Virus record (IMG/VR): IMGVR_UViG_3300025759_000058
Origin: a virus
Direction: 5' to 3' (one strand)
DNA: 64,000 nucleotides
The position numbers were made by a program, and so were the translations under genes. Below are positions 25,768 through 41,300 of this stretch, piece by piece (position 1 is the stretch's first letter; every line of letters begins with the position of its first letter). The notes beneath the pieces are model-generated. The model did not search any database. It was not told where the DNA came from and saw only the letters and a program-made list of their open reading frames with translations.

Positions 25768-27345
25768 ATGGCGCAACGTAATATCAAAGAAGTAATTCGC
25801 GAAGAATATAAAAGATGTGCACAAGATCCTGTGCACTTTATGCGCAAATATTGTATTATTCAACATCCTACTAAAGGTAAGATGTATTTTAATTTATATC
25901 CTTTTCAGGCTGCTACGTTAACAACATTACAGCATAATCGTTATAACGTAATCCTTAAATCTAGACAGTTAGGTATTTCAACACTTTCGGCCGGGTTTGT
26001 ATTATGGAACATGTTATTTAAAGATGACTACAATGTTCTTGTCATCGCCACAACACAAGAAGTAGCTAAAAACTTGGTCACCAAAATCAGAGTCATGCAT
26101 GAAAATTTACCATCATGGCTAAAAGGCCGTACTATTGAAGATAACAAACTTTCATTGCGATTTAAGAATGGGTCGCAGGTAAAAGCTGTATCGAGTGCAG
26201 GTACCGCCGGCCGTTCTGAGGCATTGTCATTATTAGTTATTGATGAGGCTGCATTTATTAAAAATATTGAAGAGATATGGGCGTCTGCTCAACAAACATT
26301 GGCTACTGGTGGAGGTTGTGTTGCACTTTCAACGCCTAACGGCACCGGTAACTGGTTTCATAAAACATGGGTTGATGCAGAAGCCGGAGGCCAATTCGTG
26401 CCAACTGAATTGCACTGGACAGTACATCCCGAACGTGACCAATCATGGCGTGATGAACAAACCGGACTATTAGGCGAAAAGATGGCTGCACAAGAATGTG
26501 ACTGCGATTTTATAACATCCGGTCATACGGTAGTCGACGGTCCTATATTACAATGGTATGAACAAACATACGTTAAAGATCCAATTGAGCGCCGCGGATT
26601 TGATTCAAACTACTGGATGTGGGAATATCCAGATTACGGAAAAGACTATGTTGTTGTAGCAGACGTTGCACGCGGCGATGGAGGCGACTACTCTGCATTC
26701 CATGTTATTGAAATTGAAAACATGGTTCAAGTTGCTGAATACAAAGGGAAGATAGGTACTACAGAATATGGTAATATGCTGGTATCTGTTGCAACAGAAT
26801 GGAACAATGCATTATTAGTTATTGAAAATGCAAATATAGGATGGGCGGCTATTCAAGTTGTAATAGATAAAAACTATAATAATTTATATTACTCATATCG
26901 GCAAGATGCATATGTAGATGAAGATATACACTTATCAAAAGGTTACGATCTAAAAAACAAAGCACAAAAAGTTCCGGGATTTTCTACTACATCAAAAACC
27001 AGGCCATTGGTTATTTCAAAACTAGAAACTTATTTTAGAGAAAAGTCGCCAATCGTTCACAGTAAACGACTTATAGATGAATTATTTGTATTTATATGGA
27101 ATGGTAGTAAGGCTGAAGCACAATCTGGTTATAATGATGACCTGGTAATGGCATTTGGTATTGCATTATGGATACGAGATACTGCACTTCGGCTACGGCA
27201 GCAAGGTTTAGAATTATCTAAAAAATCTTTAGGATACTTTGGTAAAGTACAACATGATACTGGTGTATATACTAATAAAAATTCTAATGGTGCATGGGAA
27301 TGGCGTAATGGCTATGGAAAAGATGATCTAACCTGGCTAATATGA
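25768..27345 (+). CDS. terL: Terminase large subunit (gp17-like)
   Basis: KSRQLGIS Walker A, LLVIDEAAF Walker B, STPNG coupling motif, DVARG and DDLVMA nuclease motifs. Confidence 0.95.
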   Translation: MAQRNIKEVIREEYKRCAQDPVHFMRKYCIIQHPTKGKMYFNLYPFQAATLTTLQHNRYNVILKSRQLGISTLSAGFVLWNMLFKDDYNVLVIATTQEVAKNLVTKIRVMHENLPSWLKGRTIEDNKLSLRFKNGSQVKAVSSAGTAGRSEALSLLVIDEAAFIKNIEEIWASAQQTLATGGGCVALSTPNGTGNWFHKTWVDAEAGGQFVPTELHWTVHPERDQSWRDEQTGLLGEKMAAQECDCDFITSGHTVVDGPILQWYEQTYVKDPIERRGFDSNYWMWEYPDYGKDYVVVADVARGDGGDYSAFHVIEIENMVQVAEYKGKIGTTEYGNMLVSVATEWNNALLVIENANIGWAAIQVVIDKNYNNLYYSYRQDAYVDEDIHLSKGYDLKNKAQKVPGFSTTSKTRPLVISKLETYFREKSPIVHSKRLIDELFVFIWNGSKAEAQSGYNDDLVMAFGIALWIRDTALRLRQQGLELSKKSLGYFGKVQHDTGVYTNKNSNGAWEWRNGYGKDDLTWLI

Positions 27346-29256: not shown

Positions 29257-29322
29257 CGTGAAGGTATTTAGTATTAACGCCATATTTATAAAAAAGTATG
29301 ATCATAACAGGGCGATTACTTC

Positions 29323-30165
29323 ATGAAACGAATGAAACATTCCAAGTATAAGAATACAGGACTAATCTTTGAACTTCTCGTCCGCCAAGTTGCATCGGAT
29401 ACGATGCATAATAGAGACTCAAAAGCGTTACATATATTAAAACGTCATTTTTCTAAAAATGCAGAACTTTCGAAAGAATTAAAACTGTACAGGTCTTTAC
29501 ACGAAGAAAAATTTATTAATGAGCGGAAGGCGGAGCTTTTTCTTGATGCAGTACTGAAATCCAGACGGCAGTTGAACGAATCTCAACTACGTAGAGAAAA
29601 ATATAATTTAGTTAAAGAAATTAATGCCGTATTAGATACAACAGAATTCTTTAATGCTCGTATAACATCTTATAAACAGCATGCTGCGATTTATAAATTG
29701 TTTGAATTTACAGAGTCTGATGACCCTCGTAGCTATGTCGATAACAGATCGTCATTAGTAGAACATATACAGACTCAGACAAAAGCAGAAGAAAAGGTAT
29801 CATTAGTATCTGAAGACAAAGATATACGAATCTTAGCATCTAAAATGGTTGTAGATAAGTTTAATGAAAAATATTCTACATTAAGTGCACCACAAAAAAG
29901 AATGTTAAGAGAGTATATTAATAACGTTACTAATTCTTCAAAACTCAAAGCATATGTAATTACAGAAACAACTAAAATTGAATCTGAAATTCAATCGCTA
30001 AAGCGTCAAGTTGTTAGTAAGGTGACGCGTATTAAATTAAATGAAGTTTCATCATTGTTAAGCCAGCTTCGTCAGAAGCATGTAATTCAAGATAAAGATA
30101 TTGTTACCATGTTACGTTATTACGAATTAGTTGAAGAATTAAAAAAAGCTGAGGAGTCTAACTAA
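29323..30165 (+). CDS. Hypothetical head-cluster protein
   Basis: 280 aa, KHSKYKNTGLIFELLVRQ start; follows portal; late motif at 29282. Confidence 0.6.
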   Translation: MKRMKHSKYKNTGLIFELLVRQVASDTMHNRDSKALHILKRHFSKNAELSKELKLYRSLHEEKFINERKAELFLDAVLKSRRQLNESQLRREKYNLVKEINAVLDTTEFFNARITSYKQHAAIYKLFEFTESDDPRSYVDNRSSLVEHIQTQTKAEEKVSLVSEDKDIRILASKMVVDKFNEKYSTLSAPQKRMLREYINNVTNSSKLKAYVITETTKIESEIQSLKRQVVSKVTRIKLNEVSSLLSQLRQKHVIQDKDIVTMLRYYELVEELKKAEESN

Positions 30166-30470
30166 TGGCACGTGGACAAGTTTATTTAGCACCTAGCGGA
30201 TCTCAAATCAATCAGTTTGAGACTCAAGGATTTCCGGGCGAATATCATTCGCCATTGGCATATACATCTGGACAAGTTGATTTAACTGGTTCTAATTACG
30301 GTTACGGCGCGGTTATGGTAGTAACTCACGGCAGCGCTACGTTGCATTATGCTGGCGGTACAAGTTCATTAGCTTCTGATTTAACTGCTAAAGATATTTA
30401 CAATTTGTCTGTAGCAAAAATAACTGGCGGGACTGGCGCTAAAATTTATTTATTTAAGAGACAGCAATAA
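30165..30470 (+). CDS. Small virion protein
   Basis: 101 aa, GAGGAG SD, TAATG coupling. Confidence 0.55.
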   Translation: MARGQVYLAPSGSQINQFETQGFPGEYHSPLAYTSGQVDLTGSNYGYGAVMVVTHGSATLHYAGGTSSLASDLTAKDIYNLSVAKITGGTGAKIYLFKRQQ

Positions 30471-31228
30471 TGAAATTGATAGATCAATTAGACTTATACT
30501 TTGAAGCATTGGATAAAATTTCTGATAAAGAAGCAGCACAAGATTTTGATTCTTTAGATGATAAAGATATTGATAATGACGGTGATGTAGATGATACCGA
30601 TTCATATCTTCATAACAAATTAGGCAATGTAGCCAAAAACGTTAACGAGGCAGATAATATCGACCAGCTTCATAGCGATTTTATGCGTATGGTATCTGAT
30701 AAGATATCAGACAACGAAGCTCGAGCGTTAATAAATCAATTAAGACGTCAATATGATGATGAAGAAATTCGTGCAGTTTTAGGACCATTAGGATTATTAC
30801 GCGATGAAATGACAGAAATGTCAACGACAGCGGCCGTGCCTGGCGATATTAAAACGCCATATGCATTTGGTAAGAAAGAGGATGAAAAGGATAATGCTGA
30901 AGTTGTTGGTTATAAAAAAGTACAGGAAAGTGCTTATAAGCGTATGATGCGTGATGTATATGGGATTAAATCAATTGATGAGGCAGTAACATATTCGGAC
31001 TTTAAAAAAGATCCTAAATCAACGCCGCAACAAAAAGTAAATAGAGGCATTGCCGAAGTAAACCGTATGTTAGCAGAAATGGAAAAAATTGTTAATAACA
31101 ACTTACGGTTGAAGCAAGAAATGGGCGTTGATTCATCTCACTTTTGGAAAACTACCGGTAGCCGATTTGCAAAAATAAATGAACGCATGACGCGTATATC
31201 AAATAGATTAAGAGAATTGTCAAAATGA
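30470..31228 (+). CDS. Putative prohead core/internal protein with EF-hand-like loop
   Basis: DKDIDNDGDVDDTD motif; several x-x-E sites (VNE, MTE, VQE, IDE). Confidence 0.55.
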   Translation: MKLIDQLDLYFEALDKISDKEAAQDFDSLDDKDIDNDGDVDDTDSYLHNKLGNVAKNVNEADNIDQLHSDFMRMVSDKISDNEARALINQLRRQYDDEEIRAVLGPLGLLRDEMTEMSTTAAVPGDIKTPYAFGKKEDEKDNAEVVGYKKVQESAYKRMMRDVYGIKSIDEAVTYSDFKKDPKSTPQQKVNRGIAEVNRMLAEMEKIVNNNLRLKQEMGVDSSHFWKTTGSRFAKINERMTRISNRLRELSK

Positions 31229-32019
31229 ACAAAGTAATGAGATATTATCAGACGTGGACAGACTATTCGCGTCGCCCCGAAATTCAATCTTTAATTGAAT
31301 CGAAAGGTATAGAATATGTGCGTCAACAGTATATGCGTGAAGTAAATTATATGCAATGGAATTATCCAAATCAAATAAATGAAACAATGGAACCTGGTCA
31401 ATCCGTTAATAACTCAATTAATAGTGATGGCAGTTCTACTCAATTTATTACAGGATATTCTAAAGAAACGTCTACGTTTACGTTAGCAGATGGATTGACA
31501 GACGGATTTGAAGATGCAATCCATGGGACATTCTTTGATGTATATGCATATAATAACACTGTAGATTATTCATTAGATCATGCTGATAGTGTTAAACAAA
31601 TTAGATGTTTTATAACGACAGGGTCTGCAGAAACATTTTCAAATACCGGCGGCGCAGCATGCGTCATTACCGCATCTGTTGATGGCGTGAGTGGTATTGT
31701 TACGGGTTCAATATTAGAATCGTTTAGAGATGCAATAAATAATCAAGGTGCATCCGCAGTCGTAGCTGGCTTTACAAATACATTTGCGCCATCAGATATA
31801 ATATCAGGTTCGGTAACAGATAATGTATTAACTATTACAAGAGAATATAATGCAGGTGTTCCGGATATATCATTAACAGCCGGCACTAATGCAACTAACT
31901 TATCAGATACTGCATCTGTAGCAACGCCCGTTAATGGTTTAGATACATATTATTATGCGCAAGGTATGCAGGTATTTGATGGAGCGGTTGCGCCTTATTC
32001 AACATTGCCCAGAAAATAA
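31225..32019 (+). CDS. Hypothetical virion protein
   Basis: 264 aa, ATGA overlap, TGS/SGS-rich C-terminal part. Confidence 0.55.
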   Translation: MNKVMRYYQTWTDYSRRPEIQSLIESKGIEYVRQQYMREVNYMQWNYPNQINETMEPGQSVNNSINSDGSSTQFITGYSKETSTFTLADGLTDGFEDAIHGTFFDVYAYNNTVDYSLDHADSVKQIRCFITTGSAETFSNTGGAACVITASVDGVSGIVTGSILESFRDAINNQGASAVVAGFTNTFAPSDIISGSVTDNVLTITREYNAGVPDISLTAGTNATNLSDTASVATPVNGLDTYYYAQGMQVFDGAVAPYSTLPRK

Positions 32020-32029
32020 GGAATAAACA

Positions 32030-32635
32030 ATGTCTAAAACATTATTAGTCGATTATACATTATTTGAAGTATCACCTCAGCAAATAAATGAGTCAATGAC
32101 TCAAAACAATGGCCGTTTAATTGTATCTGGCGTATTGCAACGGGCTGAGGCTAAGAATCAGAATGGACGTATTTATCCTAGAGAAACATTAGTACGTGAA
32201 GCAAAAAAATATTCTGACTCATTTATTGCAGAAAAGCGTGCATTAGGAGAATTAGATCATCCCGATTCATCCGTTGTTAATCTTAATAATGTTTCTCATA
32301 ATGTTTTAGAAATGGCGTGGGCAGGAAATGACCTTGTAGGAAAGGTTGAGGTATTATCGACGCCTTCAGGAAATATTCTTAAAGAGTTATTTAAGTCTGG
32401 TATTCGTTTAGGCATTTCATCTCGCGGTATGGGGTCTGTTAAAGAAGTAATGAAAGAGGGCGAAAATACATTAGAAGTGCAACCTGACTTTGAATTAATT
32501 GCTTTTGATTTTGTATCAAATCCATCTACTCATGGCGCATTTTTGTCGCCGGTTAATGAATCAGTAAATAAAGTTACGAACAATATGTATGGAACAGTTG
32601 ATCGTATAATTACTGATATCATTAGAGAGTTTTGA
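32030..32635 (+). CDS. Prohead protease (gp21-like)
   Basis: NQNGRIYP, ALGELDHP, VSH, TPSG, GISSRGMGS, DFVSNPS. Confidence 0.95.
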   Translation: MSKTLLVDYTLFEVSPQQINESMTQNNGRLIVSGVLQRAEAKNQNGRIYPRETLVREAKKYSDSFIAEKRALGELDHPDSSVVNLNNVSHNVLEMAWAGNDLVGKVEVLSTPSGNILKELFKSGIRLGISSRGMGSVKEVMKEGENTLEVQPDFELIAFDFVSNPSTHGAFLSPVNESVNKVTNNMYGTVDRIITDIIREF

Positions 32636-32901
32636 TGAAATTACCAATATCGTTTGATCAATTTACAAAAAATCCTGTCTCGGCAATTGCATTTGTTGCT
32701 TTAGGCGTTATAGGGTATTTGTATGTCGATATGATTAAAGTACATGAAGCACAGTTAACTAACTTAGACCGAACATGTACACAGCGCATTAATGACCATA
32801 AAGAGCGAATTGAGTCATTAGAAGAAACAGTAGTCCGTTATGAGGATAAGTTAGACCAAATAAATGATAAGTTACTCAAATGTTTAGGACAAGACAATTA
32901 A
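32635..32901 (+). CDS. Single-TM + coiled-coil membrane protein (i-spanin-like candidate)
   Basis: AIAFVALGVIGYLYV TM then heptads with 2 Cys; TGATG-coupled to the protease. Confidence 0.5.
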   Translation: MKLPISFDQFTKNPVSAIAFVALGVIGYLYVDMIKVHEAQLTNLDRTCTQRINDHKERIESLEETVVRYEDKLDQINDKLLKCLGQDN

Positions 32902-33437
32902 TAATAGCTAGTGCACTTATATTAATAGGATGTAGTGAGCAACTCGAATCGCCTCAATATTTCAGCACGGAGCCAGAGATAGTTGATTCGATCCAAACTA
33001 AAAACCAATGGGAAGGATTGTCTAGTATAGATGCTACATTAGCTATGGCAGACGAGGTAATGGCTAAACAGATGGAAGAAGAACGCCGTACACAAAATAC
33101 TATAATTAGATTACGTACTACTGTGACTAGCGAAGAGGCTATAATAGATTCATTGCGGTCTTCAATAAGTTTTCGTGATAGTTTAATAAATCAATTAGGT
33201 TCTATACAAAAAACGCAACATGCGAGTATAGTAAATTTACGTGAAGAATTGCAACATAGGCAACATATATGTACTACAGAATGTACACCTACAATATTCC
33301 AATTAAAAAATGAAAATAAACAATTATTAAATTATATACAAGAGTTACAGAGTCAAATCGAAATAATGGATTCGTTATTATTAGATAACAGAAAAACGAG
33401 AAAAATCTATGAACCTACTACCGGAAGATCTTTTTGA
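32880..33437 (+). CDS. Lipoprotein with coiled coils (o-spanin-like candidate)
   Basis: MFRTRQLIIASALILIG-C lipobox; overlaps the 3' end of the preceding TM gene. Confidence 0.55.
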   Translation: MFRTRQLIIASALILIGCSEQLESPQYFSTEPEIVDSIQTKNQWEGLSSIDATLAMADEVMAKQMEEERRTQNTIIRLRTTVTSEEAIIDSLRSSISFRDSLINQLGSIQKTQHASIVNLREELQHRQHICTTECTPTIFQLKNENKQLLNYIQELQSQIEIMDSLLLDNRKTRKIYEPTTGRSF

Positions 33438-33525
33438 TTTACCAGAATTTAAAGTACTACCATGGTATAAAAGATTTTGGATTAGATTAAAGGTAGCATT
33501 TTTTACTTTTAACTCTTATATGTGA
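33409..33525 (+). CDS. 38-aa micro-ORF absent from the ORF track
   Basis: MNLLPEDLFDLPEFKVLPWYKRFWIRLKVAFFTFNSYM*; fills the gap and its TGA overlaps the holin ATG (TGATG). Confidence 0.6.
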   Translation: MNLLPEDLFDLPEFKVLPWYKRFWIRLKVAFFTFNSYM

Positions 33526-33941
33526 TGACTAAATCTACAACTATTATAATAGGCCTTACATCGACATTAAGTTTTTTATGTTCATATTTTTTAAACTTGA
33601 CATTAGATAATGTTGAACAGTTTTTAGGTATAGCATGTGTCGTTTTATTAGATGGCTTTTTTGGAATTATTGCTGGTACAAAAAGAGAAGGATTTAAAAC
33701 TTTTAAAGCCCTTAGTGTACTTCGAACATTAGCAGTATGGTGGATTATCTTAGGAGCTATTCTAGCGGTAGAACAAGGATTTGTAGGTGCCGGATGGTTA
33801 TCAGAAACTATTATAATTCCATTTTTACTATTTCAAATTATAAGCGCTCTTAAAAATGCCTCAATGGCTGGTTTTATTAAAATGGATTTGTTAAATCAAA
33901 TCTTAGATAAAATTGACAATCATAAAGGTATTAGAAAATGA
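33525..33941 (+). CDS. Holin (phage holin 4_1/TcdE-like)
   Basis: 3-4 TM segments; LLDGFFGIIAG and QIISALKNASMAG resemble the D..TG / E..S..EN...G pattern; charged C-tail. Confidence 0.65.
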   Translation: MTKSTTIIIGLTSTLSFLCSYFLNLTLDNVEQFLGIACVVLLDGFFGIIAGTKREGFKTFKALSVLRTLAVWWIILGAILAVEQGFVGAGWLSETIIIPFLLFQIISALKNASMAGFIKMDLLNQILDKIDNHKGIRK

Positions 33942-34126
33942 AAAATTGGACTTCGGTTAGAGCAGTATATTTGCTCATGTCAATTGTGTTATTAATTGGC
34001 TTTAGTTTAAAAAATTGGTGGATAGTATTATTTGTAATAACAATGCTTCAAGTTGGAGTATGGACTAAGTTTTGCCCTTCTAAATGGTTATTTGAAAAAA
34101 TAGGCCTGCAGAAGAGCAAACTTTAA
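33938..34126 (+). CDS. DUF2892/YgaP-like two-TM membrane protein
   Basis: R.VY...TM-TM then TKFCPSKWLFEKIG (FCP motif). Confidence 0.7.
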   Translation: MKNWTSVRAVYLLMSIVLLIGFSLKNWWIVLFVITMLQVGVWTKFCPSKWLFEKIGLQKSKL

Positions 34127-35391
34127 TGTCATTAAATTTTTTAAACATATCATTACGCTCTAAAATTTGTTTAGTGTGCGCTACGCTAATAATGCTTAGC
34201 TTCTTTGTAGTTAAGACATTATTATTGATGGAAGTGTTTGATTATTCAGAATTTACAAATTGGTATGAATATTTGTCAGTTATTTTATTTATGCCACCTT
34301 TTTTTACCGTCGTTTCTGAATTTCTTTCAAAAGCTAAAAAAGAAGTAGCCGTTAAAGCTGATTTAGAATCATTATTAAATGAATCTTGTTTAGTATCTAA
34401 AGCAGATGCGCGAGGCAAAATTACATATGTAAATGATAAATTTGTTGAAATATCAAAGTATTCACGTGAAGAGTTAATAGGACAAGATCACGTTCTATTA
34501 AACTCAGGTGTACAAGATAAACAGTTTTGGGTAGATATGTACAAAACTGTCTTGCGAGATAAACAAATCTGGAATAAGTTTGTTACTAACGTCGATAAAC
34601 ATGGCAAACATTATATCGTTAATTCTTGGATCATAGCTCATTTCGATGAAAAGGATAAGCTTAGAGGGTTTACATCTGTCCGGCAAGATGTAACTGAACT
34701 AGTTAATACATTAGAAGCTATTAAACAAAAAGATGTTTATTTAGAACATGCCGCAAAGATTATTAGACATGATATGCATTCTGGTATTAATACGTATTTA
34801 CCCCGGGGCATTAAATCATTAAAACGTAGATTGAATGATGAACAAATTAAAAAGTTACGTATACAAGCACCATTACAATTAATTCAAGATGGATTACATC
34901 ATGCTCAAAAAGTATACGCTGGCGTGTATGAGTTTACTAATCTAGTTAAGCATAACGCCCAAATGTCTAAACAAGCATGTGATATAAAATTTATATTAGA
35001 AGACTATTTACGTTTAACGGCGTATAAGAATCAAGTAATATTAGATGATAATCTGCCTAAAGATTTGCATGTCAATGAAGCTTTGTTTTGTACGGCATTA
35101 GATAATCTAATACGAAATGGGTTAAAGTATAATGATTCTAAAACAAAGTACGTAAAAATATATTCAGAGTTTAAACAAGGTCAACAATATTTATGTATAG
35201 AAGATAATGGCCGCGGCATGTCTCAAGAAGAGTTTGAGGTACTGTCTAAGCCATATCAGAGAAAAGAAGGCCAGAAAGAAGAAGGTACGGGTTTAGGGTT
35301 AAACATATGTATTGAAATCTTAAAGGAGCATGGTTTTGAAATTATTTCAAATAAATTAGATGTTGGAACTAAGATAACGGTAAAAATATGA
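34126..35391 (+). CDS. Membrane-bound PAS/PAC sensor histidine kinase
   Basis: 2 TM; PAS (ADARGKITYVNDKFVEISKYSREELIGQDH..LNSG...RQDVTE); H-box IRHDMHS; N-box DNLIRNGLKY; G1 EDNGRGM; G2 GTGLGL. Confidence 0.93.
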   Translation: MSLNFLNISLRSKICLVCATLIMLSFFVVKTLLLMEVFDYSEFTNWYEYLSVILFMPPFFTVVSEFLSKAKKEVAVKADLESLLNESCLVSKADARGKITYVNDKFVEISKYSREELIGQDHVLLNSGVQDKQFWVDMYKTVLRDKQIWNKFVTNVDKHGKHYIVNSWIIAHFDEKDKLRGFTSVRQDVTELVNTLEAIKQKDVYLEHAAKIIRHDMHSGINTYLPRGIKSLKRRLNDEQIKKLRIQAPLQLIQDGLHHAQKVYAGVYEFTNLVKHNAQMSKQACDIKFILEDYLRLTAYKNQVILDDNLPKDLHVNEALFCTALDNLIRNGLKYNDSKTKYVKIYSEFKQGQQYLCIEDNGRGMSQEEFEVLSKPYQRKEGQKEEGTGLGLNICIEILKEHGFEIISNKLDVGTKITVKI

Positions 35392-35825
35392 TTAATACAT
35401 TAATGTTAATAGATGATGAAAATTTATTTCATCTTGTCTTTGAGGATGCATGTTCATTGTTAGATATGGCATTGTCGATAGAAGCATTAGATAGCTCGGA
35501 TGAAGCAGATAAAAAATTCAAAGAATGGTTTCCGGACGATCCGAATCACGAACGACCCGAATGTGTGTTTGTAGACTTAAATATTATTGGTTCTTCTATG
35601 GACGGAATCGAAACTATTAGAAAAATAAATACTGACTATGGTAATGGTTGTGTAATTGGTATTATTTCATCATCTGAAGACGAAGAAGAAATTGCCAAAG
35701 CAAAAGCAGTAGGAGCTCAATTTTGGATTATTAAGTCCGATGATATAGAACCTAGGTTAGAGTCGTTTATGGAAGATTATAATGGATATGTTAATAAAAC
35801 AGCTCCATTTAAAGTATATAGATAA
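35388..35825 (+). CDS. Single-domain response regulator (receiver only)
   Basis: LMLIDDE acidic pocket, FVDLN phospho-acceptor Asp, DGIE, ISSS, WIIK. Confidence 0.9.
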   Translation: MINTLMLIDDENLFHLVFEDACSLLDMALSIEALDSSDEADKKFKEWFPDDPNHERPECVFVDLNIIGSSMDGIETIRKINTDYGNGCVIGIISSSEDEEEIAKAKAVGAQFWIIKSDDIEPRLESFMEDYNGYVNKTAPFKVYR

Positions 35826-36421
35826 TGATTGAAATAACAGAACATACTAGGAATGTTCTACTCGAGGTTGCTAAAAAGAAAAAAATCTACGTAGAAGGAA
35901 GTTTCTTAAAAATTTTAAAAGCACCAAAAGGTGATACAGAGTTCGAAGACTACCTTACATTATGTAAAGAAAAAGATGTTGCAGCTCGTAGAAAACGAAT
36001 GGAAGTTGCAAAAGAAGTGCAGCAACAAAATAAAGAGCTTGAAGCAGCTGCAAAGAAGAATTCAAATTTAATGACTGAACTGCAATCGGCATTAGACGAG
36101 ACAAAACGATCTGAAGAAGAAGCGAATGAGTTACGACGTCAAGCAGAACAATTGCGAGACCAAGCAGTAAATGATTTAGATATTTTGCAAAAACGTACAC
36201 AGTTTGAGTTAATAGGAACGATTGTACGTAGTGCATTATATGTTATTATTGGCGTTGGGTTATTAACAACGGCATTATATGTTTATGTAATGTCGCAAGG
36301 TTTTGATTCTAAAATCATAGAATCGACATGGTCTAATTTATTTGGTATACTTTTGACAAATTCATTTAGTATTGTAGGTACTATTATGGGAGTCAAGTAT
36401 GCTACAGATAAGGAAAAGTGA
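35825..36421 (+). CDS. Coiled-coil protein with two C-terminal TM helices
   Basis: Long heptad region then ALYVIIGVGLLTTALYVYV and LFGILLTNSFSIVGTIMGV; TAATG-coupled to the RR. Confidence 0.7.
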   Translation: MIEITEHTRNVLLEVAKKKKIYVEGSFLKILKAPKGDTEFEDYLTLCKEKDVAARRKRMEVAKEVQQQNKELEAAAKKNSNLMTELQSALDETKRSEEEANELRRQAEQLRDQAVNDLDILQKRTQFELIGTIVRSALYVIIGVGLLTTALYVYVMSQGFDSKIIESTWSNLFGILLTNSFSIVGTIMGVKYATDKEK

Positions 36422-36801
36422 TGTATGAATATAATGCAATAGTTGATAGAGTCATCGACGGTGATACTATTGATTGTACGATAGATTTAGGCTTTCGTAC
36501 ATGGAAAAAAATACGCGTAAGGATGGAAGGAATTAATACACCGGAATCTAGAACACGTGATTTAGAAGAAAAGGCTAGAGGAAAAGCTGCCGCGGCTCGT
36601 TTAGAAGAAATACTTAATTTAAACAATAACAAGTGTGTGCTGAAGGTATCTGGTATAGGTAAATTTGGAAGGGCGTTAGCTTCTGTCTTTGTCACCTCAT
36701 TATCGCCGATTGACGGTCCTTCGTCATTGACATTAATTAACGTAAATAAACAATTGATTGAAGAGGGCCATGCTGTAGAATATCACGGTGGTAAACGATA
36801 A
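36421..36801 (+). CDS. Thermonuclease (SNase family)
   Basis: RVIDGDTI, RMEGINTPE, GKFGRALA, VNKQLIEEGHA; no signal peptide. Confidence 0.9.
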   Translation: MYEYNAIVDRVIDGDTIDCTIDLGFRTWKKIRVRMEGINTPESRTRDLEEKARGKAAAARLEEILNLNNNKCVLKVSGIGKFGRALASVFVTSLSPIDGPSSLTLINVNKQLIEEGHAVEYHGGKR

Positions 36802-36832
36802 ATGCTTCATATTTATTAAAAAGGAATTTATA

Positions 36833-37012
36833 ATGGCATTAGTAGATAAAACATCTAAGTACGGGCCAACGAATCCAATCGGAAAACGTGGAACGGGTGA
36901 ATTGGTAGATTTACTTGCATTCGAAACAGGTGCTGGTAATGTTGGTGTCGCTAGTAAATACGGACCTGTACAGTATGGTAAGCAGCCTAACAGATATGAG
37001 GATGCGGTCTAA
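36833..37012 (+). CDS. Small virion protein (59 aa)
   Basis: ATATTTAT 36809 and AAGGA precede ATG 36833; SKYGP repeated twice. Confidence 0.55.
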   Translation: MALVDKTSKYGPTNPIGKRGTGELVDLLAFETGAGNVGVASKYGPVQYGKQPNRYEDAV

Positions 37013-37335
37013 TGATTAAGCTAATTGGTTTAGTTAAACAACATCGCCGTCTAACTGAAGTGGATGACATTCCAATGAATCCATCAACTGATCCAGCCGC
37101 TGAGCCAACTGGTATCATTGATAAAGAAGACATACTTAACCGTATATCCAATATTGTTCAAGAGTTAGAAGCTATCGATGATGAATTAATGAATGCATTG
37201 ACCGATGCCGAAGAAACAACCGGTAGTATAGAATACCGTACAGCTAAAGCAGTATTAAGCCGTTATTTATCAGCCGCATTAAAAAATTTAAAACGAATAG
37301 AGCGGCCGATTAAAGGAATAAAAGGATCGTTATGA
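37012..37335 (+). CDS. Putative internal head protein
   Basis: MIKLIGLV...LTE leader. Confidence 0.5.
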   Translation: MIKLIGLVKQHRRLTEVDDIPMNPSTDPAAEPTGIIDKEDILNRISNIVQELEAIDDELMNALTDAEETTGSIEYRTAKAVLSRYLSAALKNLKRIERPIKGIKGSL

Positions 37336-37877
37336 GCAAGTGGGAATCACAACTTTTAAAACATATTCTTAATGAAAAGTATTTGGGCGAAGAAGAAGAC
37401 CAAAAAATGTCTAAAAACGAACGTAAGTCGTTTCTAGAAACAGTTTCAAACTATCAAGATCTTGGCAAACAAGTGTATAGAGAAAATACATTAGTTGAAT
37501 TGTCTAAGACATTAGGCGGCATCGTTGAGCAAGCTGAAAAATTAACATTAGATGAGTCAGAACATTGGTTTGATAATGTAACGGTGTCACGACATATGAA
37601 GCAGATGAATGAGGCATATAAAGTCTTTGAAAAGACTGCAAAAGAAATGTCAGGCTTACAGCAGCGATTAGAATCTGCATATGAAGATATGGGTTCAATT
37701 TTAAATCGTTATTATGACATGAATAGTGCAATTAGTGAAGATCAGTATACTGCCGGTGTAGATGATGGCGAGGCTGGCGATGCATTACAAGAAGACCAAT
37801 ATACAGCAGGTGTAAATGATCAAGGTCCTGGCTTTCATGATCATATGACGGCTACAAAATCAAACCGCATTAAATAA
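37332..37877 (+). CDS. Head-cluster protein with duplicated EDQYTAGV.D tail
   Basis: ILNE leader; helical core; C-terminal peptide repeat. Confidence 0.55.
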   Translation: MSKWESQLLKHILNEKYLGEEEDQKMSKNERKSFLETVSNYQDLGKQVYRENTLVELSKTLGGIVEQAEKLTLDESEHWFDNVTVSRHMKQMNEAYKVFEKTAKEMSGLQQRLESAYEDMGSILNRYYDMNSAISEDQYTAGVDDGEAGDALQEDQYTAGVNDQGPGFHDHMTATKSNRIK

Positions 37878-37889
37878 TAAACATTTTTT

Positions 37890-37919
37890 TTGTACTTTGA
37901 AAAAACGTTATTATATTTA
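37890..37919 (+). promoter_or_regulatory. Bacteroidota sigmaA-like promoter candidate overlapping an ATATTTAT motif, upstream of bS21
   Basis: TTG (37890-92), 19-nt spacer, TATATTTA (37912-19). Confidence 0.45.
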
Positions 37920-37943
37920 TAGTATAAACTAAACTAGTTATAA

Positions 37944-38195
37944 ATGAATTCAAAACAGTACAAGAAGCATCAAGCTATTTTACCTGGCGCCGGCATCGGC
38001 GTCCGGTTAACTTCCGGAAAAGATCGCAAATCAAATATTGAACGTGCACTGCGAGACTGGAAAAAGCAAGTTAAAGATGCCGGCATAATAACGGCATTAA
38101 AAAATAGAATGCAATACGAAAAGCCATCAGTGACTAGACGTATTGCTAAAAAGAAAGCTAGATATATAGCAAAAATTCAATCAGAACAAAATTAA
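37944..38195 (+). CDS. rpsU: Phage-encoded 30S ribosomal protein bS21
   Basis: NIERALRDWKKQVKDAGII..LK.R..YEKPSVTRR...KKARY matches the S21 pattern. Confidence 0.88.
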   Translation: MNSKQYKKHQAILPGAGIGVRLTSGKDRKSNIERALRDWKKQVKDAGIITALKNRMQYEKPSVTRRIAKKKARYIAKIQSEQN

Positions 38196-38208
38196 AGGAG
38201 AAATAGAT

Positions 38209-38454
38209 ATGAACCAAGCAAAAGTAATGGGCATTCTTAGACACACCTTGACATTCTTAGGTGGTGTGTTAATAACTCAAGGAGTTATCGACGAATCATT
38301 GTACACTGAATTATTCGGTGCAATTATGACATTAGTTGGTGGTGTATGGTCTGTGATCGATAAAAAGACTGTTGAAGCCGTCGAAGATGTTGTAGAAAAT
38401 GTCAAAGAAAAAGTTGATGAGGTTAAAGCAAAAGTAAGTCGTAAACGTAAATAA
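38209..38454 (+). CDS. Small two-TM putative holin (Pam3-gp28-like)
   Basis: GILRHTLTFLGGVLIT.G...GAIMTLVGGVWSVIDK. Confidence 0.65.
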   Translation: MNQAKVMGILRHTLTFLGGVLITQGVIDESLYTELFGAIMTLVGGVWSVIDKKTVEAVEDVVENVKEKVDEVKAKVSRKRK

Positions 38455-38475
38455 TCATATTACGATAAAAATAAG

Positions 38476-38500
38476 AAAGGCGCCTTCGGGCGTCTTTTTT
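38476..38500 (+). terminator. Rho-independent terminator, cUUCGg loop
   Basis: AAAGGCGCC-TTCG-GGCGTCTTTTTT. Confidence 0.85.
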
Positions 38501-38650
38501 ACTATATAAATGAGTGGTTTTCTTGCATTGTGTATAATTATAATTGACAATTGATACTACGTATGAAAACGTAGTCCCTGAAATATTAATTACTTTAATA
38601 TTGAGATTAAAAATAATCTCAGTTCCCCAATCAAATATTAGGAGACAAAA

Positions 38651-39544
38651 ATGAATGACCTTTTAAAGGAGGCCATTGCCGACGCAAAAGCTGTGCGTGA
38701 AACTGCAATGGCAAATGCAAAAATTGCATTAGAAGAGGCCTTCACTCCCAGACTCCAAAGCATGTTATCTGCTAAATTAGCCGAAGAAGAAGAGTTAGAA
38801 GAAGAGGACGACGATGTAGTTGCTGAGCCAGCTGCAGAGCCAGTCGCTGAACCTGCTCCCGAAGCTCCGGTTGAGGAAGAAGAGGATATACCTATGGATG
38901 AAGGCGAGTATGAAGACACTATGGAAGAAGAGGAAGATATGGACCTCGAGGAAGAAGATGATATGGACTTAGAAGAAATCATCAGAGAGCTTGAAGGAGA
39001 AATGGAAGCTGACGAAGAACCTGTTGCCGAAGGCGAGGGTGAAGACGATGAGCCTGTTTCTGAAGGCGAAGGTGAAGAAGAAGAGACTGTATCCGAAGGT
39101 GATGATGAAGAAGTTTCAATCGACGAAATTATCAAAGCATTGCGTGAAGAGGACGGAGAGGAAGAGGAGCCAGTAGCGGAAGCTGAAGATAAGGCCGAAG
39201 AATTGGAAGAAGCTTATCAAGTCATCAAATTCTTAAAGTCTAAAATTAACGAAGTAAATCTTCTTAATGCAAAGTTGTTGTTCTCTAACAAGTTGTTTAG
39301 AAATTATTCATTGAACGAAAACCAAAAGGTTAAAGTTATTGAAAATTTCGATCGCGCACGTACGTTGCGTGAAGTAAAGTTAGTTTACAGCACATTAGCT
39401 GAATCGTTTATTACGACTAAAGCTAAAAGACAAATTAAAGAAAGCTATGCATCTAAGCCAACGCCTTCTACAAGACCATCTAAGCAGGTGATCAATGAAG
39501 GTAATGATTTAGCTGCTCGCTGGAAAAAATTAGCTAACATTTAA
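38651..39544 (+). CDS. Prohead core/scaffold protein (gp22-like)
   Basis: Highly acidic with many x-x-E repeats, immediately upstream of MCP, AGGAG SD. Confidence 0.8.
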   Translation: MNDLLKEAIADAKAVRETAMANAKIALEEAFTPRLQSMLSAKLAEEEELEEEDDDVVAEPAAEPVAEPAPEAPVEEEEDIPMDEGEYEDTMEEEEDMDLEEEDDMDLEEIIRELEGEMEADEEPVAEGEGEDDEPVSEGEGEEEETVSEGDDEEVSIDEIIKALREEDGEEEEPVAEAEDKAEELEEAYQVIKFLKSKINEVNLLNAKLLFSNKLFRNYSLNENQKVKVIENFDRARTLREVKLVYSTLAESFITTKAKRQIKESYASKPTPSTRPSKQVINEGNDLAARWKKLANI

Positions 39545-39561
39545 TCACGGAGATTATTAAA

Positions 39562-41274
39562 ATGAACGTAAGCTCATTATTACCTACCGATGCAATGGCT
39601 AACCAAAATGCGGCTTCACTTCAATTAGAAAAGAAGTGGGAAAAGACCGGTCTTTTGGAAGGTATTGCTTCTGAGGTAGACAGAAAAGGAATGGCCGTCC
39701 TTTTAGAAAACCAGGCCAAGCAACTCGTATCAGAAGTTAACAATACTGGTACTGGTGCAAGCGATGAACAATGGGCGGGTGTTGCTCTTCCATTAGTACG
39801 TAGAATTTTTGCTGAAATTGCTGCAAAAGATTTCGTATCAGTTCAACCTATGAACCTTCCTTCCGGACTCGTATTCTACTTGGACTTCAAGTATGGTACT
39901 GCTCAAGGAACTAACGGTTTCAATGGCTCAACAGGTAATGACTTCTTAACTAGCCAAGGTAGAACATCTCAAGCCGATTCTGTATTTGGTATTACCGATG
40001 CAGGTGACTTAGGTACATCTGCTGCTGGAGGAGCTGCTCCTTCTGAAGGTTTATATGGTGCAGGTCGATTTGGATATACAATCAATGATGCTACTGAAAT
40101 TGTTGCAGTAAGCACTGGTTCATATGATCCATTTACTGCTACCTTTACTGAAGGCGGTGCTGCATTGACTGGATTGCAATTAGACAAGTTCACTAACTTT
40201 AATGCAGAGTTTTCTGCTAGTGCAGCTGCTAATACTAGAGCATACCAAGTTGTTCGTGTTACCAAGGCAGATTTAACTGCTCCAGATACTAATGGTATTA
40301 GAGCATTTAACTTGTCAGGTTCTGGTATTACTAATATCGTTCCTGAATTTACTCGTCAAGATTCAACGCACATCTACTTCTTAGCTCAAACTGCTTCAAC
40401 TCCTGTTGTAACAGGTGCGGATGCAGTTGTCGTTGCTTATCACAAGCAGCCTGCAGACAATTCTAGAGGCGATTTTGAAGATACAACTGGCGGTAACTTA
40501 ACTGATTCAACGATCCTCGATATTCCAGAAATCAATTTGGAAATGAGAAGTGAGGCAATTGTTGCTAAGACTCGTAAGTTGAAAGCTGTTTGGTCTCCTG
40601 AGTTTGCTCAAGACTTGAACGCTTACCACAGCATTGACGCTGAGGCTGAGTTGACTAGCATGTTGTCTGAGTACGTTTCTCAAGAAATTGACTTGGAACT
40701 TTTAGACATGTTGATTCAGAATGCTCAAACAACTGAGCGTTGGTCTGCAAAAGTTGGATATGAGTTTGATACTACTACCAACACCTTTACTCAAGGTAAT
40801 GCAACTGCTCAAGCTTACAACCAAGGTACTTGGTTCCAAACTTTAGGAACTAAGATCCAAAAGGTAAGCAATAAGATTCACCAATTGACGTTGAGAGGCG
40901 GAGCAAACTTCTTAGTATGTTCTCCGGCTGTTGCAACTATCCTCGAATCTATTCCTGGATATGCTGCTGATACCGACGGTAATAAGACGCAATTTGCAAT
41001 GGGCGTGCAGAAAGTAGGTGCTATCAACAGCAGATTCCAAGTTTACAAGAACCCATATATGACTGAAAATACAATCTTAATGGGTTACAGAGGATCACAG
41101 TTCCTCGAAACTGGTGCTGTTTATGCTCCATACATTCCGCTTATCATGACGCCATTGGTATACGATCCATCTAACTTCACTCCAAGAAAGGGTGTGATGA
41201 CTCGTTATGCCAAGAAGATGGTACGTCCTGAATTCTATGGTAAGGTCTACGTCGGTCACTTGAACGTAGTCTAA
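39562..41274 (+). CDS. Major capsid protein (gp23-like)
   Basis: LLENQ, LVRR, VQPMNLPSGLVFYL, AKTRKLKAVWSPEFAQDL..H.IDAEAEL, YAPYIPL, PRKGVMTRYA. Confidence 0.97.
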   Translation: MNVSSLLPTDAMANQNAASLQLEKKWEKTGLLEGIASEVDRKGMAVLLENQAKQLVSEVNNTGTGASDEQWAGVALPLVRRIFAEIAAKDFVSVQPMNLPSGLVFYLDFKYGTAQGTNGFNGSTGNDFLTSQGRTSQADSVFGITDAGDLGTSAAGGAAPSEGLYGAGRFGYTINDATEIVAVSTGSYDPFTATFTEGGAALTGLQLDKFTNFNAEFSASAAANTRAYQVVRVTKADLTAPDTNGIRAFNLSGSGITNIVPEFTRQDSTHIYFLAQTASTPVVTGADAVVVAYHKQPADNSRGDFEDTTGGNLTDSTILDIPEINLEMRSEAIVAKTRKLKAVWSPEFAQDLNAYHSIDAEAELTSMLSEYVSQEIDLELLDMLIQNAQTTERWSAKVGYEFDTTTNTFTQGNATAQAYNQGTWFQTLGTKIQKVSNKIHQLTLRGGANFLVCSPAVATILESIPGYAADTDGNKTQFAMGVQKVGAINSRFQVYKNPYMTENTILMGYRGSQFLETGAVYAPYIPLIMTPLVYDPSNFTPRKGVMTRYAKKMVRPEFYGKVYVGHLNVV

Positions 41275-41300
41275 TTTATAGAATTAGAATATAACTAGGA

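Follow-up and report, generated by a model that had tools for sequence, protein, structure and literature searches.

Introduction

The moment of lysis sets burst size and phage fitness. To our knowledge, lysis inhibition in T4 is the only well-understood signal-dependent delay of lysis, and no enzymatic signalling takes part in it. There, the holin T is accompanied by two antiholins, RI and RIII: RI binds directly in the periplasm and so senses superinfection, and RIII acts on the cytoplasmic N-terminal part of the holin (PMC8385771, PMC11413866). Two-component systems of the LytSR/LytST kind control the holin-like proteins LrgAB and CidAB, with a reported input that includes membrane potential (PMC2996381, PMC5717393). 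Here, we describe a gene cassette from the virus record IMGVR_UViG_3300025759_000058, of which a stretch of 64,000 nucleotides (nt), hereafter the window, was analysed. At positions 32635–36801 on the plus strand, the window encodes a histidine kinase and a receiver-only response regulator in one chain with spanin-like, holin-family and small membrane protein genes (A to E), a coiled-coil membrane protein that we call H, and an SNase-type endonuclease.

The stretch is best explained as a late-expressed cluster of lysis genes (A/B, C and D) with a built-in, phage-specific signalling module. From the arrangement of genes and domains, we lean towards the view that this module is a phage phosphorelay that has H as its output and the control of lysis timing as its purpose. 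We found no description in the literature of a phage kinase–receiver pair in a lysis cluster. A set of 50,697 GenBank phage records held no DNA match to positions 32000–37000 and no protein match to the receiver or H; the kinase matched only at 24% identity, in two records named 'Acinetobacter phage MD-2021a'.

Results

A Constant Core in Viral Relatives

A scan of IMG/VR found relatives of the kinase in 124 contigs, of which 80 loci were kept and compared by tblastn and by clustering of all open reading frames (ORFs). L-numbers below denote loci of relatives, P-numbers proteins found with the profile of H, and c-numbers ORF clusters. The constant core of these loci is the order E–kinase–receiver–H, often with C and D upstream. 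H follows the receiver in 70 of the 70 loci that have at least 700 nt downstream (median gap 9.5 nt), and in 61 of 76 loci E is encoded upstream of the kinase at a distance of up to 400 nt. The first-pass annotation of this DNA had named a recent chromosomal passenger as the outcome that would speak against its proposal of a signal-controlled lysis switch. We reject this option, the family being overwhelmingly viral and the kinase being kept together with the receiver and H.

Linkage of the pair to lysis genes, which the same annotation had proposed, is borne out in relatives. Of 76 loci, 40 have the holin-family gene D, and of 78, 40 have an endolysin gene no more than four genes away from the module, on its upstream or its downstream side depending on the arrangement. 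Endolysins of three unrelated types recur there: a PG_binding_1 plus Amidase_2 protein, a GH19 protein (phrog_181, 5e-53) and a phrog_3000/phrog_33083 protein. When the loci are grouped into lineages by kinase identity, 14 of the 23 evaluable groups show such proximity at 80%, and 8 of 10 do so at 70%; by a rough estimate, about 5% would be expected by chance, given one or two endolysin genes per genome of some 200 genes.

In many relatives (L012, L015, L064 and others), the cluster of lysis and signalling genes is found outside the head module, immediately downstream of the genes for the large and small subunits of ribonucleotide reductase (PF02867, PF00268).

The Gene Chain and Its Putative Transcription Signals

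The window belongs to a large, uncultured T4-like myovirus, with genes for TerL, a Gp20-type portal protein, a prohead protease of the S77 family, a capsid protein of the Gp23 type, PhoH and a homologue of bS21. Identity of the capsid protein to its counterparts in Flavobacterium phage immuto and Microcystis phage Mel-JY01 is 58%. The T4-type protease gene (32030–32635, plus strand; Peptidase_S77, 5.8e-27; phrog_207, 9e-55) gives the cassette its context, and the cassette is coupled to its stop codon: in a TGATG junction, the stop TGA at 32633–32635 and the ATG of A have an A in common. From this stop to position 36801 runs a chain of nine plus-strand ORFs with overlaps of 1–29 nt, namely 22 nt for A/B, 29 nt for B/C, 1–4 nt for C/D, D/E, kinase/receiver and H/SNase, and 1 nt for E/kinase and receiver/H. 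All nine ORFs that the first-pass annotation had chained downstream of the protease are present, where it had placed them and on the plus strand. Since C, D, E, the kinase, the receiver and H are each kept in dozens of independent viral contigs, the chain is not a product of chance.

The first-pass annotation had also placed the cassette inside the head module, and a special meaning of this position is not supported. Head genes adjoin the module only in three 94%-identical contigs, so that the position is a local, lineage-specific rearrangement. The slot between the protease and the scaffold/capsid genes holds one to four small genes in immuto and Mel-JY01, while it spans about 5.3 kb in the window.

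The motif ATATTTAT occurs in 23 plus-strand copies in the window, 20 of which lie 5–55 nt 5' of a gene start, mostly of structural genes. In this group of phages, the motif is a candidate for a late-promoter element (examples at 27345, 29282, 36809, 37913 and 41329). The promoter-like copy at 29282–29289 (plus strand) heads the unit 29323–36801, which includes the protease gene. The next well-placed copy, at 36809–36816 on the same strand, lies 17 nt ahead of the start codon of gene J (ATG at 36833; 59 aa in relatives) and marks the end of the unit. From the motif at 29282 to the stop of the SNase gene, there is no gap, no terminator and no correctly placed ATATTTAT. This suggests that the cassette is expressed late, at least mainly as the tail of the head-gene operon. 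The absence of a terminator had already been claimed, and indeed the region 30425–41296 has zero plus-strand terminator-like sites; the accompanying claim that the chain has no internal promoter-like motif needs correction, as a ATATTTAT copy sits at 35187–35194 (plus strand) in the kinase gene. This copy is off-pattern, 194 nt 5' of the receiver start, and may be a chance occurrence or an internal promoter. In relatives, ATATTTAT precedes c6, a small transmembrane (TM) gene heading most c6–endolysin clusters, in 12 of 29 cases, and it never precedes D, the receiver or H.

The Kinase, the Receiver and Protein E

The histidine kinase (34126–35391, plus strand; 421 aa) is composed of two TM segments, a PAS domain (approximately residues 85–195), a DHp domain with H215 and a CA domain. 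Pfam recognises the PAS and HATPase_c domains, the latter with 57.8 bits against a cutoff of 26.4, and the Pfam HisKA model gave no match. Residues 196–412 align to HK853 (2c2a, 3dge) at 1e-12. In 63 homologues, the H-box EHAAKIIRHDMHSGINTY (RHDMHSG) with the probable phospho-histidine H215 is invariant, and the N (DNLIRNGLKYN), G1 (DNGRG) and G2 (GTGLGL) boxes are nearly so. The receiver (35388–35825, plus strand; 145 aa; Response_reg, 35.4 bits against a cutoff of 30.2) has no output domain, and its D9, D10, D63, S94-96 and K116 are invariant in 28 sequences. With 83% mean column identity in the alignment of 28 homologues (A1), it is conserved far above the kinases or H. Among real receivers in the PDB, its best profile matches reach only 1.4e-5 (3ilh) and 3.3e-4 (4zyl). 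The homologue alignments thus confirm the earlier statement that the kinase boxes and the acidic pocket, Asp and Lys of the receiver are intact, and with these catalytic residues in place both signalling proteins look functional. A DNA-binding output of the relay was rejected, the regulator having no output domain.

The hydrophobic segments of the kinase (approximately residues 8–40 and 49–68) are joined by a loop of about 12 aa. With two TM segments, an outside loop shorter than about 25 aa and no extracytoplasmic domain, the protein has the layout of an intramembrane-sensing kinase. In kinases of this kind, such as LiaS and BceS, the outside loop between the two TM segments is very short, and a small membrane protein is encoded next to the kinase. 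The input part varies among the 63 homologues: 34 are about 300 aa long, with nothing between TM2 and DHp, about 20 have a PAS domain, and a few reach about 590 aa. In a PDB profile search, the PAS domain of the window matched FAD-binding PAS domains, namely MmoS PAS-A (3ewk, 4e-23), to which it is about 45% identical as counted by hand, and that of Aer (8dik, 2.5e-13). The flavin-pocket residues of MmoS are T103, H132, N164 and R195 (PMC9668731). By our own mapping of the predicted pocket, the kinase keeps three of these four residues (H122, N155 and R186), the Thr being replaced by Ala93. The kinase input in this phage is probably a flavin-type redox or energy PAS. In the short kinases, the signal would have to be read in the membrane, perhaps together with E.

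Protein E (33938–34126, plus strand; 62 aa, two TM helices) has an invariant W-T-x-F-C-P-S-K and a DUF2892/YgaP-like look (alignment A4, 71% column identity), and is a candidate kinase accessory. It had been called a DUF2892 protein, a name that we do not retain: E reaches 14 bits against the PF11127 cutoff of 25.3, 11 of 19 homologues match below threshold (best 1.9e-4), and the resemblance to the family extends only to the F-C-P motif and the two TM helices.

Two tandem homologous kinases, with a secreted protein of about 200 aa encoded between them, precede one receiver and one H in L019 (9965–13225) and L021/L022 (10001–13802).

Protein H and Its Variants

H (35825–36421, plus strand; 198 aa) is made up of a small conserved N-domain (residues 1–37), a coiled coil of variable length and a TM hairpin. 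According to alignment A2 and an AlphaFold2 (AF2) model, a long helix of residues 38–158 would run continuously from the coiled coil into TM1 (predicted local distance difference test, pLDDT, 83), followed by TM2 at residues 163–196. The second hairpin helix is nearly invariant (TWSNLFGILLTNSFSIVGTIMGVKYA), and the hairpin has small or polar residues at every fourth position (G174, T178, S182, T186) and a GxxxG motif. A profile search with H retrieved only 255 clusters among 1.84 billion representatives, and the Atlas clusters are viral wherever a phylum is recorded. The Atlas name 'GLE1-like' for these clusters is an automatic label on clusters without a Pfam family, and we treated it as coiled-coil noise.

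The hairpin is also found behind other cytoplasmic inputs. P0030 joins a GAF domain to the coiled coil and hairpin, and P0052 does so with a tandem PAS–PAS; the first is encoded beside endolysins in L090, and the second beside an endolysin in L089. Both loci are on phage-like contigs and have no kinase or receiver. Their clusters hold A-like, lipoprotein, and GH19 or glucosaminidase genes, and in L090 only a c6-like gene. P0056 has a single PAS domain before the coiled coil and hairpin, and so has P0041, from a 1.6-kb contig, whose PAS domain is 56% identical over 123 residues to that of the window kinase (2e-44). From these variants, H appears to be a modular output: its hairpin takes varied cytoplasmic inputs and yet stays in lysis clusters.

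A complex of the receiver with H(1–125) was predicted, with an interaction prediction score from aligned errors (ipSAE) of 0.33, as compared with 0.00 for the best of three controls. Agreement between runs covers 90% or more of the contacts, with a partner pLDDT of 82 or higher. The ipSAE mark is reached by 58 of 80 solved complexes and by 2 of 110 mismatched pairs, and values of 0.60 or less include only 7 of the 80 solved complexes and both passing mismatches. The prediction lends weak support to docking of the receiver on H(1–125).

Two side observations concern H. P0070 (348 aa) joins the N-domain and coiled coil to a FecCD-type ABC permease, which may be a genuine fusion or a chimera of the assembly. 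The c11 gene, often found directly 3' of H (L063, 5097–6290, and 13 other loci), encodes a membrane protein of some 400 aa that matches EF-hand models weakly.

Cellular Homologues

Of about 185,000 species genomes searched, only 6 have the receiver pattern; all six loci are in metagenome-assembled genomes (MAGs), and in each the kinase is encoded beside the receiver. L086 is a Bacteroidota chromosome, with genes for type IX secretion system (T9SS) sorting-domain proteins, CreD and HAD. Here, the kinase and a 62.5%-identical receiver are followed by a protein in which the N-domain and coiled coil of H are joined to a HisKA–HATPase core. L091 has a homologous kinase, a 143-aa receiver 63% identical to that of the window and an N-domain kinase core, after which comes an AraC-type helix-turn-helix (HTH) gene. 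The same architecture of N-domain, coiled coil and HisKA–HATPase core is found in P0129, P0142 and P0148, with a receiver gene directly upstream (shown in L091/L092 for P0142). The adjacency of receiver and N-domain thus survives a change of output. The N-domain was absent from 400 other Bacteroidota genomes searched.

The receiver tree has no outgroup and so gives no direction of transfer between phage and cell; in it, the two cellular sequences form a well-supported pair attached to a divergent, GH19-linked phage subgroup.

The kinase and receiver, with H where the contig reaches, also occur in MAGs of Verrucomicrobia, Bdellovibrionota and Proteobacteria (L083, L084, L085, L087, L088). These five loci are probably mis-binned phage contigs, and the phylum of the MAG is an unsafe host call. 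A search of five trio-bearing MAGs for a T4-like capsid protein found a match in one only, on another contig, which does not establish a phage origin of the contigs.

Spanin-like and Holin-family Genes, SNase and Neighbours

A (32635–32901, plus strand; 88 aa) has an N-terminal TM helix (residues 13–36) and a coiled coil, as in an i-spanin. B (32880–33437, plus strand) encodes a 185-aa lipoprotein with the lipobox LIGC and a coiled coil, and looks o-spanin-like. The TM and lipobox descriptions of the first-pass annotation are backed by hydropathy. A-like genes (31–32% identity) are also present in the endolysin clusters of L089 and L090, where coiled-coil lipoprotein genes adjoin them. No spanin profile in Pfam or PHROGs matched A or B, and with its 185 aa and coiled coil B is unlike the known o-spanins, which we take to be short. 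By their layout, we would call A and B a spanin-like pair.

C (33409–33525, plus strand) is a 38-aa conserved peptide with the aligned motif EDIF..EFK.L.W..R.WIR.KVAF, matched by tblastn in 51 of 76 loci. D (33522–33941, plus strand, with the ATG at 33525) encodes a protein with three or four TM helices, of the Phage_holin_4_1 family. Its earlier naming as a holin holds for the family and falls short for the copy at hand: 22 of 22 aligned homologues match PF05105 (best 2.5e-8), and the copy in the window, with 19.1 bits, stays below the Pfam cutoff of 22.2. In many relatives, an endolysin gene directly adjoins C–D; searches of the window with the three endolysin types found none. The SNase-type endonuclease (36418–36801, plus strand; PF00565, 36.5 bits against a cutoff of 21; phrog_452, 1.3e-34) is a coupled neighbour outside the conserved core.

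Some further observations concern lipoproteins and neighbouring genes. B is only 57% identical in L003, L004 and L010, though the flanking genes are 97–99% identical, and is either a hypervariable or a replaced gene. Another lipoprotein, c20 (46–56 aa, lipobox LTSC), lies between the receiver and H in L047, L055 and L073 and before C in L051, L065 and L068, and could be an o-spanin or a passenger. Downstream of the cassette, the window has a bS21 ribosomal protein gene (37944–38195; PF01165, 4.9e-12), where Mel-JY01 has an annotated RpsU in the equivalent slot. An 81-aa protein encoded at 38209–38454 is laid out like a holin, with two hydrophobic helices followed by a strongly charged tail at the C-terminus; it belongs to phrog_37382, which has no assigned function, and its homologues lie near the signalling module in L015 and L020.

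Discussion

The hairpin keeps to lysis clusters when its inputs change, and the receiver keeps to the N-domain when the output changes. These two observations suggest the order sensor, kinase, receiver, H N-domain and hairpin, with H as the candidate output of the relay. We would therefore propose the following scenario as a reading of gene and domain order. The membrane kinase, with only a short outside loop, would read the signal, and in most relatives the input would be the membrane part alone, possibly with E. The kinase would autophosphorylate at H215 and pass the phosphate to D63 of the receiver, and the phosphorylated receiver would then dock on the N-domain of H. The change would run along the coiled-coil helix into the near-invariant TM hairpin, which would alter membrane integrity or hole formation and so set the moment of lysis.

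Our guess is that the hairpin works on whatever holin a given phage encodes, either triggering it as a gated leak or pore or delaying it as a clamp. Within this reading, the sign of control could be either, delay or trigger. We think that H is more likely an autonomous gated membrane element than a specific antiholin, because the holin-like neighbours vary by locus (D, c6 and others) and H is constant. The first-pass annotation had the relay gate a holin or spanin; the link with lysis genes stands, and the target should rather read as H, the most constant partner. A fuller scenario can be offered only tentatively: a lineage of aquatic T4-like phages would time lysis by phosphorylation, with a kinase that reads the respiratory, redox or membrane state of the host, H as a new kind of gated hairpin that, operated through the receiver, depolarises or seals the membrane and so sets off or holds back the holin present, and sister phages that use a fused PAS or GAF sensor instead.

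Several points weigh against timing of lysis by a phosphorelay. The evidence for lysis is one of gene neighbourhood only, and its counts come from kin phages, which are not independent. In about half of the loci, no endolysin was recognised among genes up to four positions away, and D, absent from many loci, is not a constant holin partner. In the window itself, tblastn queries covering every member of c6, c11, c16 and the three endolysin clusters gave no match, and a PHROGs search with ten unassigned ORFs near the cassette found no lysis family. H has no detectable relative of known function: a profile search against PDB sequences returned coiled-coil noise only, and Foldseek with the H model found nothing in the PDB at E <= 0.001. 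The prediction that the receiver docks on H is weak. A redox input, finally, cannot be general, because most relatives have no PAS domain.

The alternative that survives best, which we still hold to be unlikely, is that the module controls a different membrane function of the late phase, for example the exclusion of superinfection, homeostasis of ions or of the proton motive force, or remodelling of the envelope for release, and lies near lysis genes only because membrane-protein genes cluster in these phages. The loci in which no nearby endolysin was recognised, the window among them, would suit such a role, and H matches no holin family in Pfam. However, proximity to lysis genes is kept by three non-homologous endolysin types, on either side of the module, and by two sensor-fused variants of H, and in the window spanin-like and holin-family genes belong to the same coupled chain.

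Host takeover seems to us more improbable still. In that case, the receiver or the pair would cross-talk with a relay of the host that is built like the cellular one (kinase, receiver, N-domain kinase and AraC regulator) and reprogram host transcription, with H being secondary. Its basis lies in the cellular homologues described above, in which receivers 62–63% identical to the phage protein stand before a second kinase with the same N-domain, followed in L091 by the AraC-type HTH gene, and whose two receivers branch beside a single phage subgroup in the tree. Yet the N-domain in 0 of the 400 other Bacteroidota genomes and the receiver pattern in 6 of about 185,000 genomes mean that few hosts would have the target, and the phages always bring their own kinase and H. 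That the relay gates the SNase and hence DNA degradation, as the first-pass annotation had considered, is hardly credible: the SNase start overlaps the H stop in the window, but among relatives only the closest ones (L003, L010 and L011) have an SNase gene after H, and none stands beside the module in the other loci.

If control of lysis timing through H proves true, these phages would compute the time of lysis from the energy or envelope state of the host, and the module would be the first phosphorelay-controlled lysis clock. It would also represent a new type of two-component output, in which a receiver acts on a coiled-coil TM hairpin, and a small portable set of parts (sensor, coiled coil and hairpin) for engineered, signal-triggered lysis of laboratory strains. 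The natural domain swaps, with the hairpin fed by a relay, a PAS or a GAF domain, make the question directly testable.

Comparison with Known Systems

By its composition, the module appears to belong to none of the classes represented by T4 lysis inhibition, LytSR and CheY/DivK. It has in common with T4 lysis inhibition a lytic T4-like phage, a lysis time that would depend on a signal and extra proteins acting on a membrane lysis protein, and the action of RIII on the holin may be compared with that proposed for the receiver on the N-domain of H. However, T4 has no kinase, receiver or phosphorylation, and no cassette protein matched an antiholin family (RI, RIII) in Pfam or PHROGs.

LytSR is comparable in that it couples a two-component system to membrane proteins resembling holins and antiholins, and to the activity of murein hydrolases. 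That system, however, is cellular and acts on transcription via a LytTR regulator, whereas the phage regulator has no output domain, the kinase is not of the LytS type and the genes are co-transcribed with their putative targets. Membership in LytSR was rejected, as no LytS-type or LytTR Pfam domains were found.

CheY with FliM, and DivK with DivL/CckA, offer a parallel in single-domain regulators that work by protein contact: a partner reads the phosphorylation state of a receiver without further domains (PMC9430884). The cellular variant found here, a receiver followed by an N-domain kinase, resembles DivK acting on a kinase-like protein, while in the phages the proposed partner is a new N-domain with a coiled coil and a TM hairpin.

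On the input side, the PAS domain keeps the His, Asn and Arg of the pocket of the FAD-binding PAS domains of MmoS, Aer and NifL (PMC9668731). It differs from them in that the pocket Thr is Ala, and in that only some members of the family have the PAS domain, which is also found joined straight to the H hairpin. The likeness to LiaS and BceS is one of layout, of the size of about 300 aa seen in most relatives and of the small membrane protein encoded nearby. They differ from the module described here in that its kinase is phage-encoded and its output is not a DNA-binding regulator.

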